Source of the DNA: Candidatus Staskawiczbacteria bacterium RIFOXYB1_FULL_38_37
Lineage (GTDB): Bacteria > Patescibacteriota > Minisyncoccia > Minisyncoccales > Staskawiczbacteraceae
Assembly (NCBI GenBank): GCA_001822075.1
Contig: MHPK01000006.1
Location: 124,977 to 183,898, forward strand
Direction of reading: 5' to 3'
DNA length: 58,922 bases
Below the pieces are notes generated by a model that saw nothing but the letters and a program-made list of their open reading frames with translations, searched no databases and had not been told where the DNA came from. The position numbers and the translations under genes are program-made. Positions 12,332 to 28,345 of this stretch are shown in pieces. How positions within the stretch are numbered: position 1 is the stretch's first letter; the number at the start of each line of letters is the position of its first letter.

Positions 12332-14845
12332 TTAAGCGTTTTTACCATGGCACTTCTTATATTTTTTACCGCTACCGCACGGACACGGATCGTTTCTGCC
12401 GACTTCTTTTTTACCTGCCTGCCCAGGCAGGCCTGCTTCAACAGGTTTAAAATTTAGCATTGGCTTTTGTTGCCGGGGAATGCCGGATTTTAAAATATTT
12501 TCTGCAATGTTGGCATCAAGCATTGATAACAATTGCCCAAATGCTTTGTGCGCTTCATTTTTATATTCCACCAAAGGATCCCTGCCAGCATAAGCCCTTA
12601 ATTTTACAGAGTCTCTGACATGGTCCATGTAAGACAAATGGTCTTGCCATGCTAAATCCAAAACCCGCAAACTTACAGCCCTGCACAGCTGGTTAAAATT
12701 TTCCTCTCCCAATTCTTTTTCTTTCTCGCCCAAAGCCTGCAGAGCAGGCATTGTGGCGGGCCCGTCAAAATGGCTTTGGCTTTTGTCGGGTTTCTCAATT
12801 TTGTTAAAAATTTCCCAAATTTCTGTTTTGGGATTTACAAGAAACGCCATGCGCTTTTTGTAAATAATTTCTCTGTGCTTATTTATTACGTCATCATACT
12901 CTAATAAATGCTTTCTAGCGTCAAAATTAAACCCCTCAATTTTTGTTTGGGCAGATTCAATGGCCCCCGAAACCATGCCCGCTTGTATGGGCTGGTCTTC
13001 TGGCATGTTCAAAGCTGTCATTAAATTTTTTATTTTGTCTCCGCCAAAAATACGCATTAGGTCATCTTCCAAAGAAACAAAAAATTGCGTGGAGCCCGGG
13101 TCGCCCTGCCTGCCAGACCTGCCCCTTAACTGGTTGTCTATTCTTCTTGCGTCGTGCCTTTCTGTGCCAATTACATGAAGGCCGCCTAATTCCTTAACTC
13201 TTCGACCCTGCTCAGGGCTCGGTGGGTTCCCACCGAGAATAATATCAACTCCCCTGCCTGCCATATTAGTTGCAATGGTCACACCCCCTTGCTTTCCTGC
13301 CTGGGCTATAATTTCACCTTCTCTTTCATGATTTTTTGCATTCAATGTATTATGAGGTATGCCTTTTGTTTCTAAAAGCCTGCCAACGTATTCATTTTTT
13401 TCAACAGATCTGGTTCCCACTAAAATCGGCTGGCCTTTTTTGTTCAATTCTTCTATTTCTTTTACAAGAGCTTCAAACTTTCCTTTTTCTGTTTTGTAAA
13501 CTTTGTCAGCAGAATCTTTTCTTATCATTGGCTTGTTTGTAGGAATTGAAACAACTTCCAATTTGTAAACCTTGTCAAACTCTTCAGCTGAAGTTAAGGC
13601 GGTGCCTGTCATGCCAGACAATTTTTTGTACATTCTAAAATAATTCTGAAAAGTAATTGTGGCCATTGTTATTGATTCCGGCTTTACCTCGACTCCTTCT
13701 TTTGCCTCAACTGCTTGATGAAGCCCGGCAGACCAGCGGCGCCCGGGCAAAATTCTGCCTGTGAATTCATCTATAATTAAAATTTCTCCGTTTTTTACAG
13801 TGTAATCTCTGTCTTTCAAAAACAATGTTTTAGCCCTTAAGGCCGACTCTAACTGGTGGGTTGAGGCAATATCATTGTCTAACCACGGGTCAAAGCCCAA
13901 ACTTTTTACAATTTTGTTCTGGCCTTCTTCTGTAAAGGTTGCTGTTTTTAATTTTTCATCAATCTCGTAATCTATGTCTCTTTGCAGAGGAGACACGACT
14001 TTGGCAAACTTATAATATTTTTCCGTTGCTTCTTCGGCCCGCCCGGAAATAATTAACGGCACGCGAGCTTCGTCAATTAAAATTGAGTCAATTTCGTCAA
14101 CTATGGCAAAGTTGTGGCTTCGTTGCGCTTGTTGATTTTGTTCGTATGCCATATTGTCCCGCAAATAATCAAATCCAAATTCATTGTTTGTGCCGTAAGT
14201 AATGTCAGCTGCATAGGCTTCTTTTCTTGAAACCGGCTTTAAAAAATCCTGCACCACTTTAAACCCGCCCAATTCATCGCGCTCTTTGTCTAATTCGTCA
14301 GAATTTTGAATTTTGAATTTTGAATTTGTATAACCAGCATCATAGACATAGCCACTCTCGTTTGTAATACAGCCTACCGTCAAGCCAAGAAAATGATATA
14401 TCTGGCCCATCCAGACAGCATCTCTTTTTGCAAGGTAATCGTTAACAGTAATTATGTGCGCGCCCTTGCCCTCTAATGCATTTAAATATGCGGGCAGAGT
14501 GGCAGATAAAGTTTTTCCCTCTCCGGTTTTCATTTCAGCAATTTTACCCTGATGCAAAACAATTCCGCCAATTAGTTGTGAATCAAAATGGCGCTGGTTC
14601 AAGCTTCTTTTTGAGGCTTCTCTCACCAAAGCAAAAGCCTCTGGAAGAATGTCATCCAGCCCGCCCAAAGCCGCGGCATTGTTGCGGGCAAGCTTTTCTT
14701 TTAACTCGCTCGTTTTTTGCTTTAACTGCTCGTCTGAAAGCTTCTCAAACTCAGGTGAAAGCGAATTTATCTTATCAACTAAAGGCTGGAGGCTTTTGAC
14801 AAATTTTTCATTCGGGTCGCCAAAAATTTTATTAAAAATCGACAT
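12332..14845 (-). CDS. secA: preprotein translocase ATPase SecA
   Basis: EMKTGEGKT, VDEIDSILIDEARVPLIISG, NMAGRGVDI, QLRGRSGRQGDPG, C-terminal GRNDPCPCGSGKKYKKCHG. Confidence 0.99.
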   Translation of the reverse strand: MSIFNKIFGDPNEKFVKSLQPLVDKINSLSPEFEKLSDEQLKQKTSELKEKLARNNAAALGGLDDILPEAFALVREASKRSLNQRHFDSQLIGGIVLHQGKIAEMKTGEGKTLSATLPAYLNALEGKGAHIITVNDYLAKRDAVWMGQIYHFLGLTVGCITNESGYVYDAGYTNSKFKIQNSDELDKERDELGGFKVVQDFLKPVSRKEAYAADITYGTNNEFGFDYLRDNMAYEQNQQAQRSHNFAIVDEIDSILIDEARVPLIISGRAEEATEKYYKFAKVVSPLQRDIDYEIDEKLKTATFTEEGQNKIVKSLGFDPWLDNDIASTHQLESALRAKTLFLKDRDYTVKNGEILIIDEFTGRILPGRRWSAGLHQAVEAKEGVEVKPESITMATITFQNYFRMYKKLSGMTGTALTSAEEFDKVYKLEVVSIPTNKPMIRKDSADKVYKTEKGKFEALVKEIEELNKKGQPILVGTRSVEKNEYVGRLLETKGIPHNTLNAKNHEREGEIIAQAGKQGGVTIATNMAGRGVDIILGGNPPSPEQGRRVKELGGLHVIGTERHDARRIDNQLRGRSGRQGDPGSTQFFVSLEDDLMRIFGGDKIKNLMTALNMPEDQPIQAGMVSGAIESAQTKIEGFNFDARKHLLEYDDVINKHREIIYKKRMAFLVNPKTEIWEIFNKIEKPDKSQSHFDGPATMPALQALGEKEKELGEENFNQLCRAVSLRVLDLAWQDHLSYMDHVRDSVKLRAYAGRDPLVEYKNEAHKAFGQLLSMLDANIAENILKSGIPRQQKPMLNFKPVEAGLPGQAGKKEVGRNDPCPCGSGKKYKKCHGKNA
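12414..12431. repeat. 18-bp palindrome CCTGCCTGCSCAGGCAGG (family B), in-frame in secA
   Basis: Other copies at 16991-17008 and 26924-26941. Confidence 0.9.
12728..12793. repeat. about 66-bp two-hairpin element (family C), in-frame in secA
   Basis: Near-identical copy at 17065-17132 in an unrelated gene. Confidence 0.9.
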
Positions 14846-14932
14846 ATAAGTACCCTTATTCTACATCAAAACCGCCCTTCTGTAAACACACACAACAAAA
14901 CATTGGGAGATATGATCTCCCAATACATTTTA

Positions 14933-14998
14933 TTAAGTTAACACTTGTTAGCCTGTACTTACTATTGCGACGGCTTTTTGCCGTTCGGCAAAAAGCCG
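14933..14998. repeat. 66-bp structured direct repeat, copy 1
   Basis: 59/66 identical to 16139-16204; terminal hairpin shows a compensatory C-G/G-C change. Confidence 0.9.
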
Positions 14999-15026
14999 CA
15001 CATCTTTATTTTTTTGGCCTCACGTT

Positions 15027-15068
15027 AGGGTCACCGTTAGGGGTAACGTTACCCCTAACGGTGACCCT
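15027..15068. repeat. 42-bp perfect palindrome centred on GTAACGTTAC
   Basis: AGGGTCACCGTTAGGGGTAAC-GTTACCCCTAACGGTGACCCT. Confidence 0.9.
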
Positions 15069-15073
15069 TGCAT

Positions 15074-15101
15074 AAAAAAGCCCCTTGGGTGCCAAGGGGC
15101 T
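15074..15101 (-). terminator. intrinsic terminator of PEP-CTERM gene
   Basis: AGCCCCTTGG/CCAAGGGGCT stem followed by a T6 run on the minus strand. Confidence 0.8.
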
Positions 15102-15118
15102 AAAGCGACGAATCGCTA

Positions 15119-15940
15119 TCATTTGCGACAAAGAAGAAATCCACCAACAATCAGGCCAGTAACCAGCAACACAACCGTCGCAGGCTCAGGAATGTCAGTT
15201 GGCTGACCCGACCAGATATTGAACTCTGCAACATGTGGGTTAATATAGAACTCGACGAGATGACCGTCTACAATACCCTCAACAGCTTTGTAGTATTGTT
15301 GTCCAGACCAAACGAATCTTTTACTAAGGTTAAGGCGCAATCCAAGCCATTCAGGATAAAGCGAATCATCGAATTTCCCAAGAAATTCCGAGGCATCGTC
15401 TCCCCACGCAACCCCTTCAGGATTCGTTGTAAGGTTGAAGTTGCGCTGCTGATCGTTGAAAGTAATACTACCTGCAACCTCAATAGATATGTCTTGAGCT
15501 CTTATGGGTCCGCTAACCATCTCAAAGGTAAGATCCTGTGCTATCGGAAAAGGACCCCTAACAACATTGATATCTGAACTATATGTTGTCAGATAAAGCG
15601 TGAAAGGTATCTCCAACTGGTTGCCGAAGCCCATCTGATATGTGACATTATCAGATAGTGTAATCGTTTCATCCAGTTCGGTATGCATGCCGAGAAATGT
15701 GGTAGTCATTGCCTGCACATCAACATCCCACAAGGAATCTCCATTTGCTGGGACGTGATGCGACGGATCCCAAAAGGATCCTACACTGCCGTTCCAGGCT
15801 TCTGTCGCAATTCCGTCCACGTAGGACTGAATTTGACATCCGTAACCGTTGGATTCAGAGGTAAAGTGATACAAATCGGCAAAAGCCAAATTTGCGGCGG
15901 ACAACAAAACCAACAGGCAAACGAAAAATCTCGTCTTCAT
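15119..15940 (-). CDS. PEP-CTERM sorting-domain secreted protein
   Basis: N-terminal signal peptide; C-terminal IPEPATVVLLVTGLIVGGFLLCRK; AGGAG RBS. Confidence 0.85.
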   Translation of the reverse strand: MKTRFFVCLLVLLSAANLAFADLYHFTSESNGYGCQIQSYVDGIATEAWNGSVGSFWDPSHHVPANGDSLWDVDVQAMTTTFLGMHTELDETITLSDNVTYQMGFGNQLEIPFTLYLTTYSSDINVVRGPFPIAQDLTFEMVSGPIRAQDISIEVAGSITFNDQQRNFNLTTNPEGVAWGDDASEFLGKFDDSLYPEWLGLRLNLSKRFVWSGQQYYKAVEGIVDGHLVEFYINPHVAEFNIWSGQPTDIPEPATVVLLVTGLIVGGFLLCRK

Positions 15941-15990
15941 CGGTATTCTCCTGTAAAGGTACGTTGCAGCGAAGTTGCTGCAATAAAATT

Positions 15991-16019
15991 AGAATATGCC
16001 TAATATCAAAACTTGTCAA
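15991..16019 (-). promoter_or_regulatory. sigma70-like promoter of PEP-CTERM gene
   Basis: TTGACA-17bp-TATTCT on minus strand. Confidence 0.65.
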
Positions 16020-16021
16020 CC

Positions 16022-16078
16022 TCACGTGAGGGATCACGTGACATGGTACATACCTTGGTACATACCACAATACGTACC
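16022..16078. repeat. five 12-bp-phased units with ACGT/ACAT core
   Basis: tcacgtgaggga tcacgtgacatg gtacataccttg gtacataccaca atacgtacc. Confidence 0.7.
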
Positions 16079-16138
16079 AAACCAAAAAACAGGCTCCCCC
16101 GCCCATTTTTTATGGCTCAACCTCGTTGAGCCATATTT

Positions 16139-16204
16139 TTAAGTTAACACTTATTAACCTGCGCTTGCTATTGCGACGGGTTTTTGCCGTTCGGCAAAAA
16201 CCCG
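16139..16204. repeat. 66-bp structured direct repeat, copy 2
   Basis: See 14933-14998. Confidence 0.9.
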
Positions 16205-16248
16205 TCGAATTATGTAACTTCTTTTGGCAATATTAAACTGCTTGCTAT

Positions 16249-16728
16249 TTAATAATATAAATCTAGTTTTGAGCCGGGGGTGATGCCCAATTCTTCAATA
16301 ATTCCGGCATTTATTTCCAAAACGTATTTTGCCAAAGCTCCAGGGTTAATTGCAAGGCACTCTGCGCCCTCAAGACATGGCTGGCTGTTTTCAGCAATAA
16401 AAACAACTTCACCTAAACTGTTTATCCATATTATGTCTAAAGGGATTAAAGTGTTTCTCATCCAAAAAGGATATATACCCTCCTGCCCAAAAACAAAAAG
16501 CATGCCCTGGTCTTTTGGCAAAGAAAACCTGTACATTAGCCCTTTTTCTAATTCTTGTTTTGTTTTTGCCAATTCCACAAAAAAACAAGTTTCTTTATAG
16601 CAAACTTTAGATTGCAAATCATTTTCTAAAGAAGGAGCCAGCAAAATGCCTTTTATTTGAAAAAACAAAAAAGCCAAGCACAACAGAGCTGCAATAAAAA
16701 TTAAAATTTTGAAAACAAATTTTATCAT
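16249..16728 (-). CDS. DUF192 family protein
   Basis: VELAKT...EKGLMYR..LP..QGMLFVF, FWMRNTLIPLDIIWI, YVLEINAG. Confidence 0.92.
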   Translation of the reverse strand: MIKFVFKILIFIAALLCLAFLFFQIKGILLAPSLENDLQSKVCYKETCFFVELAKTKQELEKGLMYRFSLPKDQGMLFVFGQEGIYPFWMRNTLIPLDIIWINSLGEVVFIAENSQPCLEGAECLAINPGALAKYVLEINAGIIEELGITPGSKLDLYY

Positions 16729-17490
16729 TTATTTTGCGTTAAGTCTTTTTTGGACGGCTTCACTTTGCAGCTCAGTTAAAGCATTGTTTGCCACCCACTT
16801 GGCTGGCTTTGAATTTATTTTTTGGATTTCTTTGGCAAGCTTTATTGCCTTTTTGTTTAAATTTTTGTTTCTTTTGCCAATCTGGCGCAAAGCCCAGTTT
16901 ACAGCTTTTTTAACAAAATTTCTTTCATCGGTTGAAGCTTTTTTTATCAAAGGAAAAAATTTTAAAAAATCTTTGTCTTTCATTTTTTTACCTGCCTGCG
17001 CAGGCAGGCCATGCACAGCTAAACACGCTATGAGCGTGAAGGCGGTACGTCGTTGAAATTCCCCGCCCAAAGCCTGCGAAGCAGGCATTATGGCGGGCCC
17101 GTCTAAATGCCTTTTAGGCTTTTGTCGGGTTTTGGCCAATTCAAATACCTTTTTATAAATAAAACTTGCCTTATCAAACAAGCTTAAGCAGACCTGGTCA
17201 ACAACATCCCAAGAGTCAAAACCATTGATCCATTTATCCATTTGCTTTTCTGTCAGAAGCCCGGCATCTGCAATAAATCCGGCTAAAATTCTTGCCTCAT
17301 GTATTCCAGAATCAAAAAGTTTTAAAGCTAACTTATGGTCTTTTTTTATAATTTTTGCCAGTTTTCTTAATTCCGGAATCGGAATGCCAAAAACTTTTGT
17401 TTTTGGCCTAATGCCAAACCGCGCCATGCCTTCAGCATTGCGCGGATTCTTTAGAGATTTCAATTTTTTTATAACCTCTGAATAGTTCAT
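16729..17490 (-). CDS. DNA alkylation repair (AlkD-like) protein
   Basis: GIHEARILA, FDSWDVVDQVC, DERNFVKKAVNWALRQIGKRN; carries family B and C inserts. Confidence 0.9.
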   Translation of the reverse strand: MNYSEVIKKLKSLKNPRNAEGMARFGIRPKTKVFGIPIPELRKLAKIIKKDHKLALKLFDSGIHEARILAGFIADAGLLTEKQMDKWINGFDSWDVVDQVCLSLFDKASFIYKKVFELAKTRQKPKRHLDGPAIMPASQALGGEFQRRTAFTLIACLAVHGLPAQAGKKMKDKDFLKFFPLIKKASTDERNFVKKAVNWALRQIGKRNKNLNKKAIKLAKEIQKINSKPAKWVANNALTELQSEAVQKRLNAK

Positions 17491-18194
17491 TGCCAGACTG
17501 TATCAATTTTTGCTTTTTCTTCTGATTTTATAATCCACTTATCTTTATCTTGCGTAATAACAGCTTTGTCTGCTGTCCATATTCTTGATTTTTCCAAATC
17601 GCCAAATAAAATCACGTGTTCTTCTTTATCATCTAACGGGTTGTCAACTGACGCGCAAGCATAATAAGCAAGTTTTCCTTGTATAACAGGCCTTATGCCT
17701 GTAAAAGGCCTGCAATAAGACCCGTCTTCTAATTTTAGAAACCATGCCCAATTATCTTGCGTAAAATCCAGCAAAGAAGGCTGGGGCAATGGCTTTTCAA
17801 GCTCTATTAAAAAAGATTCTGGAGTTAAGGGGTTTGGCTGGCAAAAAACAAAAGCTGGGTCTTGCGTTTCAAAACACGGGTCAAAAATTTCATTTTTAAC
17901 TTGGCACCTAAAAGCATCCGGACGAAATGGGTCAGCTATAGAATATGAAAAGCATTCTCCTTGCTTTTTTTGCTGGGGTAAAACTTCAGGAATGCTAAAA
18001 GCTATTATATTAGTCCGCCAGCTGGCGGATTCTTTTACTGCATTTGAAATTCCAGAAAAAGAGGTGTTTTCTGATTGCGAAAAGCTTTCAGATTTTACTG
18101 CAAAATAAAAAAAGGCTATGCTAAGCGCTAAAATAATCAGCACTGCAAAAATGGTGATGACAATTGTTGATATAGAATGTCCTTTTTTGCTCAT
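17487..18194 (-). CDS. membrane-anchored Cys-containing hypothetical protein
   Basis: N-terminal TM; CFSYSIADPFRPDAFRC...DPCF; contains family A palindrome. Confidence 0.6.
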   Translation of the reverse strand: MSKKGHSISTIVITIFAVLIILALSIAFFYFAVKSESFSQSENTSFSGISNAVKESASWRTNIIAFSIPEVLPQQKKQGECFSYSIADPFRPDAFRCQVKNEIFDPCFETQDPAFVFCQPNPLTPESFLIELEKPLPQPSLLDFTQDNWAWFLKLEDGSYCRPFTGIRPVIQGKLAYYACASVDNPLDDKEEHVILFGDLEKSRIWTADKAVITQDKDKWIIKSEEKAKIDTVWQ

Positions 18195-28258: not shown

Positions 28259-28345
28259 GTGGACTCGGGCCCGTAATTGTATGTAGTTAACATATCGGTG
28301 TTGACACCCGATGAAGCGGGTGCAAATCCCGCCGGGTCCACGCCA
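28259..28345 (+). ncRNA. atypical tRNA-like RNA (pseudo-tRNA; anticodon not assignable)
   Basis: Acceptor GGGCCCG/CGGGTCC, T-arm GCGGG-TGCAAAT-CCCGC, aberrant D and anticodon arms; extended -10 upstream and terminator at 28345-28375. Confidence 0.6.

Follow-up and report, generated by a model that had tools for sequence, protein, structure and literature searches.

A direct repeat around an orphan PEP-CTERM gene upstream of secA in a Staskawiczbacteria genome: probably a mosaic of a mini-PaaX palindrome and a promoter-like fragment

Directly upstream of secA in Candidatus Staskawiczbacteria RIFOXYB1_FULL_38_37, a direct repeat stands on both sides of a gene for a PEP-CTERM-type secreted protein. 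Its copies contain a hairpin in which two differences compensate each other, and a first-pass annotation of the DNA took this as a sign of a structured small RNA or leader, or of a hairpin recombination site for cassette capture. What, then, is this repeat? The window, i.e., the whole stretch of DNA that was analysed, comprises 58,922 nt of a 762-kb genome with ~36.5% guanine–cytosine (GC) content and 7 contigs (C1–C7; the genome is called G000 below). Bare coordinates refer to the window, C1–C7 coordinates to the contigs of G000, and numbers such as L098 to metagenome contigs. P denotes the hairpin palindrome of the repeat, L its remaining 40 nt, M a quasi-palindrome within L, and R a module of the right flank. 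Our analyses favour a DNA-level mosaic: the repeat is probably a solo, REP-like palindrome of a small protein, mini-PaaX, which probably binds it, joined to a promoter or operator fragment and copied to three intergenic sites. Most likely, the repeat is not an RNA gene.

The repeat and its palindrome

A repeat search of the window gave a direct repeat of 73 nt at 14926-14998 and 16132-16204 (88% identity, spacing 1206 bp). In BLAST against the whole genome the second copy was found with E = 8.5e-21, and whole-genome searches added a third full copy of L and P at C6:89975-90041 as well as five more sites that share the hairpin without L. An independent metagenome assembly (L098, ERZ978281) is collinear with the same repeat arrangement at 99.9% identity, and an assembly artefact can hence be dismissed. 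As the first-pass annotation had described, a 66-bp repeat lies on both sides of the PEP-CTERM gene, with 7 differences between 14933-14998 and copy 2. The changes 14974 C>G and 14995 G>C, two of the seven, indeed form a compensatory pair in a 12-bp stem with a GTTC loop. Second hairpins of unrelated sequence beside each copy (14900-14926 and 16111-16135) and minus-strand ATGs 4 bp from the 66-nt repeat (14928-14926 and 16134-16132) were likewise correctly read. The parts of the repeat are:

14971..14998, no strand assigned: P copy 1, perfect 28-bp palindrome CGGCTTTTTGCCG-TT-CGGCAAAAAGCCG
16172..16209, no strand assigned: P copy 2, 38-bp palindrome (TG)CGACGGGTTTTTGCCG-TT-CGGCAAAAACCCGTCG(AA), G:C variant of the swapped pair
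14933..14970, minus: L copy 1, with M at 14935-14955 (CAGGCTAACAAGTGTTAACTT), an extended -10-like TGTTAACTT at 14943-14935 and a 15-nt spacer to P
16139..16173, minus: L copy 2, with M at 16141-16161 and an extended -10-like TGTTAACTT at 16149-16141
14926..14928, minus: ATG 7 nt downstream of the -10-like box of copy 1, 20-aa frame
16132..16134, minus: ATG 7 nt downstream of the -10-like box of copy 2, 5-aa frame
14900..14926, minus: hairpin B, 12 pairs then TTTGTTGTGT, terminator-like, unique in the genome, abutting L
16111..16135, no strand assigned: hairpin B', 11 pairs, unique in the genome, abutting L in the same register as B
14999..15030, plus: module R (CACATCTTTATTTTTTTGGCCTCACGTTAGGG), shared with the right flanks of P at C1:4504 and C6:109008

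P is a near-perfect palindrome of 28-40 bp with the form ACGACGG[C/G]TTTTTGCCG-WW-CGGCAAAAA[G/C]CCGTCGT; in copy 1 the left arm is prolonged by CGA, unpartnered on the right. G000 holds eight copies, seven intergenic and one in frame in uvrC. C:G and G:C variants of the stem are balanced at 4:4 with compensation in every copy, and the central dinucleotide is TT, AA or TA, unrelated to the neighbouring L sequence. In a set of 21 copies drawn from several organisms, pairing holds for 84.9% of cells, double changes occur in 9 of the 18 stem pairs, and the observed covariation score was reached by none of 500 shuffles. Dyad symmetry is thus kept, as the idea of a structure under selection implied, but the same covariation is expected of a DNA site bound by a dimer or of a self-templating palindrome. 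Further homologues, and covariation beyond the single pair, exist for P but not for L. BLAST of the 78-nt unit against 60 relatives returned weak partial hairpin matches alone and no homolog of L, so that no covariance model of L and P together could be built.

Among 401 genomes of the order, P was found in G000, in G383 and G400, and weakly in G059. Exact matches elsewhere came from one species-representative genome record and nine metagenome contigs; the viral contigs scanned contained neither P nor M. The copy in uvrC (C1:30428-30457) is a 30-bp perfect P-type palindrome that is read in frame and adds ~10 residues (YDEFLPYGKN..) to a variable linker. Twelve orthologs do not have it, which makes the insertion lineage-specific. 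By eye, P also seems to be read in frame within rluA-like and tsaD-like genes of other organisms. Of the six intergenic solo copies, three immediately follow, on the 3' side, paralogs from a ~550-aa zinc-ribbon family, a position that one copy in G383 shares. One copy in G000 falls within a divergent promoter region.

Mini-PaaX and its cognate palindromes

At C7:27707-28231, among unrelated housekeeping genes, G000 encodes a protein of 174 aa with a winged helix and a Cas2-like domain, here called mini-PaaX. Two copies of P (C7:27615-27652 and 28260-28289) bracket this gene, whose own promoter (TGTTATAAT box) is overlapped by P in its -35 region. The sole Pfam match of mini-PaaX is PaaX_M (PF20803, E = 1.5e-16); the C-terminal, ligand-binding PaaX_C domain is missing, and there are no paa genes. 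An AlphaFold (AF2) model (pLDDT, the predicted local distance difference test score, 85.5) has the winged helix first and then a ferredoxin-like domain. In the PDB, E. coli PaaX (8A39, Foldseek E = 1e-4) matches it best, with Cas2 (3EXC) lower in the list and matching the C-terminal half. Residues D91 and D100 of mini-PaaX are invariant in an alignment. A PDB search by sequence gave no match, i.e., PaaX was found by the fold search alone.

Such bracketing was seen in no fewer than five other organisms. The same P brackets mini-PaaX in the metagenome contig L035 (protein 73% identical), in G383 and in Staskawiczbacteria RIFOXYB1_FULL_37_44. In G400, the bracketing P carries a compensated GCCG>GGCG change. 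In the same-genus genome G001 neither P nor an orthologous mini-PaaX gene was found. Within the order, the family is patchily distributed (95 of 301 genomes), often with multiple copies per genome. At 18 of 33 homologous loci the gene stands between matched, lineage-specific palindromes that are separated by 592-729 nt. Homologs with 52-73% identity go with TTTTT-GCC..GGC-AAAAA palindromes and remoter ones with CGATCG-centred palindromes. As the palindrome type shifts with the identity class of the protein, the two evidently change together. Orthologs with 65-75% identity are found in unrelated neighbourhoods, namely a murG/gltX interval, beside cysS and in a ribosomal-protein cluster.

Since P brackets a gene for a DNA-binding protein in several organisms, we favour a reading at the level of DNA. 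The best evidence thus points to a protein-linked DNA palindrome where a covarying structured RNA had been proposed, and P copy 1 is a solo copy of the palindrome cognate to mini-PaaX. A search of the literature on PaaX and Cas2-like proteins, on palindromes and on palindromic repeats of Patescibacteria gave no description of such a module; the partnership is apparently unpublished.

A mini-PaaX dimer would probably recognise P as duplex DNA. P probably acts as a REP-type element whose symmetry is kept and which changes with its partner protein between lineages. It would be gained and lost together with the mini-PaaX gene and would occasionally land at new sites, even in frame within genes.

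G000 has two further mini-PaaX paralogs. One (57% identical, C6:115853-116420) is flanked by zinc-ribbon paralogs and accompanied by a palindrome of its own, AGTTAGTTTTTTGGCTCGAGCCAAAAAACTAACT; solo palindromes of this type, degenerate in sequence, stand at C6:~108850 and C1:~4690, in the same intergenic regions as two of the P copies. The other (C4:138178-138753) has ATACGCC..GGCGTAT palindromes.

The mosaic around P and the bracketed gene

A pairwise map of the P sites shows that homology between copies ends at the edges of the palindrome. The left flank L is common to three sites (-53..+17 from the dyad) and the right flank R to two (-16..+80 from the dyad); window copy 1 has both. The arrangements L+P, P+R and L+P+R hence occur with breakpoints at the palindrome edges, which argues for a mosaic such as a bacterial interspersed mosaic element (BIME) and not for one conserved RNA. 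Identity to copy 2 is higher for the distant copy 3 (93%) than for copy 1 (88-90%). Presumably, recombination or insertion at P distributed the copies.

On the minus strand L reads CAGG(Y)TAA(Y)(R)AG(Y)GTTAACTT and contains the quasi-palindrome M, whose second arm forms TGTTAACTT. From these motifs, L appears to be a promoter or operator fragment. P takes the same position relative to the -10-like box in all three copies of L and P, ~-37 to -75 if L is a promoter, and binding there could let mini-PaaX modulate transcription towards secA and the PEP-CTERM gene. Elsewhere in G000, M followed by ATG is the true 5' end of a gene for a 62-aa excisionase-type helix-turn-helix (HTH) protein (C1:65794..65606). 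The ATG at 14926..14928, noted in the first-pass annotation for its exact distance of 4 bp, is thus probably a start codon of the M module that has become vestigial. Two copies of M (GGTTAATGAGTGTTAAC) bracket the HTH gene (C1:65565-65821), which is followed by ACGCGTGAGTAG repeats and an AbrB-like gene. Another M lies upstream of gyrB, and several genes are preceded by M with ACGTGAG-type repeats after it. In other genomes, homologs of the HTH protein lack such bracketing repeats, and M as its cognate site hence stays a local observation in G000.

Between the two copies lies the orphan PEP-CTERM gene. All genes around the repeat, i.e., secA, the PEP-CTERM gene, a DUF192 gene and an AlkD-like gene, are carried by the minus strand. 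The features that flank or lie between the copies are:

15119..15940, minus: PEP-CTERM gene, 273-aa secreted protein with a weak PEP-CTERM tail, GC 45.4%
15991..16019, minus: sigma-70-like promoter of the PEP-CTERM gene, TTGACA-17-TATTCT
15079..15101, minus: intrinsic terminator of the PEP-CTERM gene, canonical, a 10-bp GC-rich stem then TTTTTAT
15027..15068, no strand assigned: 42-bp perfect zero-loop palindrome of another family, with an ACGT/GTAACGTTAC core (AGGGTCACCGTTAGGGGTAAC|GTTACCCCTAACGGTGACCCT)
14858..14886, minus: sigma-70-like promoter of secA, TTTACA-17-TAGAAT, downstream of hairpin B
14845..12332, minus: secA
16728..16249, minus: DUF192 gene

With 45.4%, the GC content of the PEP-CTERM gene differs from that of the genome (~36.5%). 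None of 200 genomes of the order encodes a homolog of its protein, and a single relative, with 29% identity, was found among 5.8 billion proteins. The gene is a horizontally acquired orphan gene for a surface protein. That relative lies on Logan contigs (L099-L101) between an HTH_3 repressor and a tyrosine integrase, a setting that resembles the end of an integrative element. Just upstream of the PEP-CTERM promoter are CACGTGAG-type repeats (16022-16078). A 5' untranslated region hairpin before the ribosome-binding site is common to the PEP-CTERM gene (15941-15985) and an unrelated gene on C2 (C2:28209-28255); it reads TTGCAGC-AACTTC-GCTGCAA vs CCACAGC-AACTTC-GCTGTGG, with compensatory changes in three stem pairs.

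Relatives, including members of the same genus, have the gene orders hypothetical gene-AlkD-DUF192-DUF378 and hpf-terminator-secA. As DUF192-DUF378 and hpf-secA are joined there, the PEP-CTERM segment ends on either side in a synteny breakpoint specific to G000, and a copy of L and P is present at each. In 10 relatives the region upstream of secA holds hpf and a terminator without any of the window genes. In G001, a contig end truncates secA, and DUF378 follows DUF192. An allele with one repeat and no PEP-CTERM gene, i.e., the empty site of a captured cassette, was not seen in these 10 relatives and G001. No P lies near hpf or DUF378 at their present positions in G000, and a simple reciprocal exchange between two P copies is therefore not visible. 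The terminator/promoter block CCGCATTGAATAAATGCGGTTTTTCGTATAAT before secA is nearly identical in relatives from three genera (G007, G009, G016).

G000 also carries other palindromes. The GTAACGTTAC core of the 42-bp palindrome recurs at C6:109050, C1:4545, C2:13707 and C6:75127. A second palindrome family, GGTGGGGTGTCGGACACCCCACC, is found at C1:77236-77290 (ligA), C3:32283-32328 (thrS), C1:91812, C3:36802, C3:43333, C4:5511 and C4:117664, with at least two copies in frame in essential genes (ligA, thrS) and doubled once. Cassettes with a methyltransferase and a restriction-enzyme-like gene (C2:1013-3169 and C2:128890-131267) are each bracketed by matched palindromes (AACGCCCCAGACANNGTCTGGGGCGTT; GAATAACTCAACAGCCGTTGAGTTATTC), and both include a small open reading frame ending in ..YYTK(V/T). 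A gene of another protein family, 171-aa TrpR/YerC-like (C1:75104-75698), shares the layout of a gene between palindromes, in this case AGTACCACSGACTGGTCSGTGGTACT.

Alternative explanations and known systems

Could the repeat act as RNA after all, as a small RNA, a 5' leader or a 3' stabiliser or terminator hairpin of the upstream gene transcribed from the minus strand? In favour of this, RNA from the minus strand folds very stably (z = -7.1 at -45 kcal/mol and z = -9.1 at -59 kcal/mol), six sites have P 3-260 nt beyond the 3' end of a gene, and a promoter-like TTAATA-16-CATAAT stops immediately short of P copy 2. In RIFOXYB1_FULL_37_44, T-runs flank one copy on both sides as in a bidirectional terminator. 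However, the plus strand folds about as well (z = -6.2 and -8.6), as expected of palindromes, and a permissive Rfam cmscan of 13000-18000 gave nothing near the gathering score and chance-level matches only. The small RNA or leader of the first-pass annotation finds no backing in these results or in the lack of L homologs in the relatives. Moreover, the loop flips between TT, AA and TA relative to L, L is not conserved outside G000, and the copies in uvrC and in the divergent promoter region do not fit such a role. Intergenic solo copies, including both window copies, have no U-tract on the strand of the upstream gene, their T-runs being on the opposite strand. In the window copies, GUCGCAAUAG follows on the minus (gene) strand, with T-rich tracts on the plus strand only. 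As the PEP-CTERM gene also has its own canonical terminator, a plain intrinsic terminator was rejected for these copies. Altogether, we deem a function at the RNA level improbable.

At the DNA level, P and M might simply be ordinary operators of mini-PaaX and of the 62-aa HTH protein upstream of secA, the PEP-CTERM gene, pgk, a nucleotidyltransferase-like gene and gyrB, with no mobility involved. The overlap of P with the -35 of the mini-PaaX promoter, its constant position relative to the -10-like box and the recurrence of M with ACGTGAG-type repeats would all suit a regulon. Yet perfect 30-40 bp palindromes in coding sequence (uvrC and, by eye, the rluA-like and tsaD-like genes) are unlike operators, and the second palindrome copy always stands 3' of the mini-PaaX gene. 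In addition, 88-93% identity across the non-palindromic spacer indicates copying, not convergence, and distances to gene starts vary. A pure regulon therefore seems very unlikely to us.

Conversely, P could be a boundary at which mini-PaaX or a host recombinase inserts or exchanges DNA, the PEP-CTERM gene being a cassette captured between copies of P (with L) as the mini-PaaX gene would be between its own. The orphan status and GC content of the gene, its sole relative beside a tyrosine integrase, the breakpoints at both junctions and the end of homology at the P edges are in line with this, and other palindrome families of G000 bracket two restriction–modification cassettes and a gene for a REP-associated tyrosine transposase (RAYT; REP, repetitive extragenic palindrome). 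Against it, neither an empty site nor an excised form was found, and the greater similarity of copy 2 to copy 3 than to copy 1 is a misfit to a fresh target duplication. Mini-PaaX has no recognised recombinase or transposase domain, and the only two PF00589 tyrosine recombinases of G000 (C7:44456 and C3:19267) are far from every P. Synteny is generally poor in the family, which makes breakpoints weak evidence, and hpf and DUF378 have no adjoining P. We consider a cassette boundary unlikely. In a bolder and quite improbable form, we may speculate that mini-PaaX is the enzyme or specificity factor of an undescribed, palindrome-directed insertion or exchange system in Patescibacteria. With its Cas2-fold domain placed on the dyad of the cognate palindrome, the protein would promote duplication of that palindrome around inserted DNA; the PEP-CTERM gene would be captured cargo and L a hitch-hiking flank. 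Such a duplication would formally resemble that of the repeat at CRISPR spacer integration, and any segment could become a palindrome-bounded cassette.

The mosaic of a mini-PaaX palindrome and a promoter or operator fragment, which we prefer, has to face several points that speak against it. The distance from P to the next gene start varies from 73 to 250 nt, unlike a simple regulon, and the P copy in RIFOXYB1_FULL_37_44 resembles an ordinary bidirectional terminator. The Cas2-like domain of E. coli PaaX serves dimerisation, and the real ligand of mini-PaaX may be a hairpin in single-stranded DNA or in RNA. The promoter reading of L comes from motif inspection only and its -35 is poor; moreover, three full copies of L are too few for statistics on selection.

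Patescibacteria thus offer a concrete case of small winged-helix/Cas2-fold proteins that are each bracketed by their own co-evolving palindrome. Here, solo palindromes are fused to what looks like a promoter fragment, at rearrangement junctions around an orphan gene and directly upstream of secA. If mini-PaaX only binds, the module would provide a compact and easily testable repressor–operator code in organisms with very few characterised regulators. If it also cuts or joins DNA, genes of ultra-small bacteria would have a new way to move, and the Cas2 fold a use outside CRISPR. For the discovery of RNA motifs, genomes of the Candidate Phyla Radiation call for caution, as they are full of such palindromes.

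Among known systems, P comes close to the REP/REPIN (REP doublet forming hairpin)–RAYT systems and BIMEs of enterobacteria and pseudomonads. In both, a short palindrome is dispersed in intergenic regions, a partner gene is flanked by it, protein and repeat change together, and mosaics occur whose homology ends at the palindrome. In G000 the palindrome is dispersed and mostly intergenic (7 of 8 copies), although its number is low compared with classical REPs. Unlike REPs, P has 2-8 copies per genome, is perfect, has no GTAG-type foot and also occurs in frame in genes. Unlike a RAYT, which is a Y1 HUH (IS200-like) transposase, the P-flanked gene product combines a winged helix with a Cas2-like domain and has no HUH/Y1 transposase motifs. 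What appears to be a true RAYT (IS200-like) gene does exist in G000 (C4:105345-106082; HUH (NHVHLL) and Tyr motifs read by eye), flanked by another palindrome, AAAWYTTGTGAGCTCGGRGCTCACAARATTT; a related 38-bp palindrome is at C4:99953.

PaaX itself, the phenylacetyl-CoA-responsive repressor of E. coli and Pseudomonas (8A39), has the same order of a winged helix and a Cas2-like domain and binds palindromic operators. Mini-PaaX differs in its length of 174 aa, in the missing C-terminal ligand-binding domain and paa genes, in its multi-copy, patchy occurrence, and in its cognate palindrome, which flanks the gene on either side and also occurs solo. The hairpin-forming attC sites of integrons likewise bound single, often orphan genes, in line with the cassette idea of the first-pass annotation. 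In contrast to attC, P is a perfect palindrome without extrahelical bases or R and L boxes, and the PEP-CTERM gene, unlike promoterless cassettes, is served by a promoter-like site and a terminator of its own. An integron was rejected, as no IntI, attI or Pc is nearby and both PF00589 genes are remote from P. Finally, Rickettsia palindromic elements (RPEs) resemble P in being both intergenic and inserted in frame into housekeeping genes as extra loop residues. The uvrC copy, absent from the 12 orthologs compared, is an insertion of this kind. RPEs are longer (100-150 bp) and have no known partner gene, and to our knowledge they have not been reported outside Rickettsia. P, in contrast, is a short palindrome that goes together with the gene for mini-PaaX.

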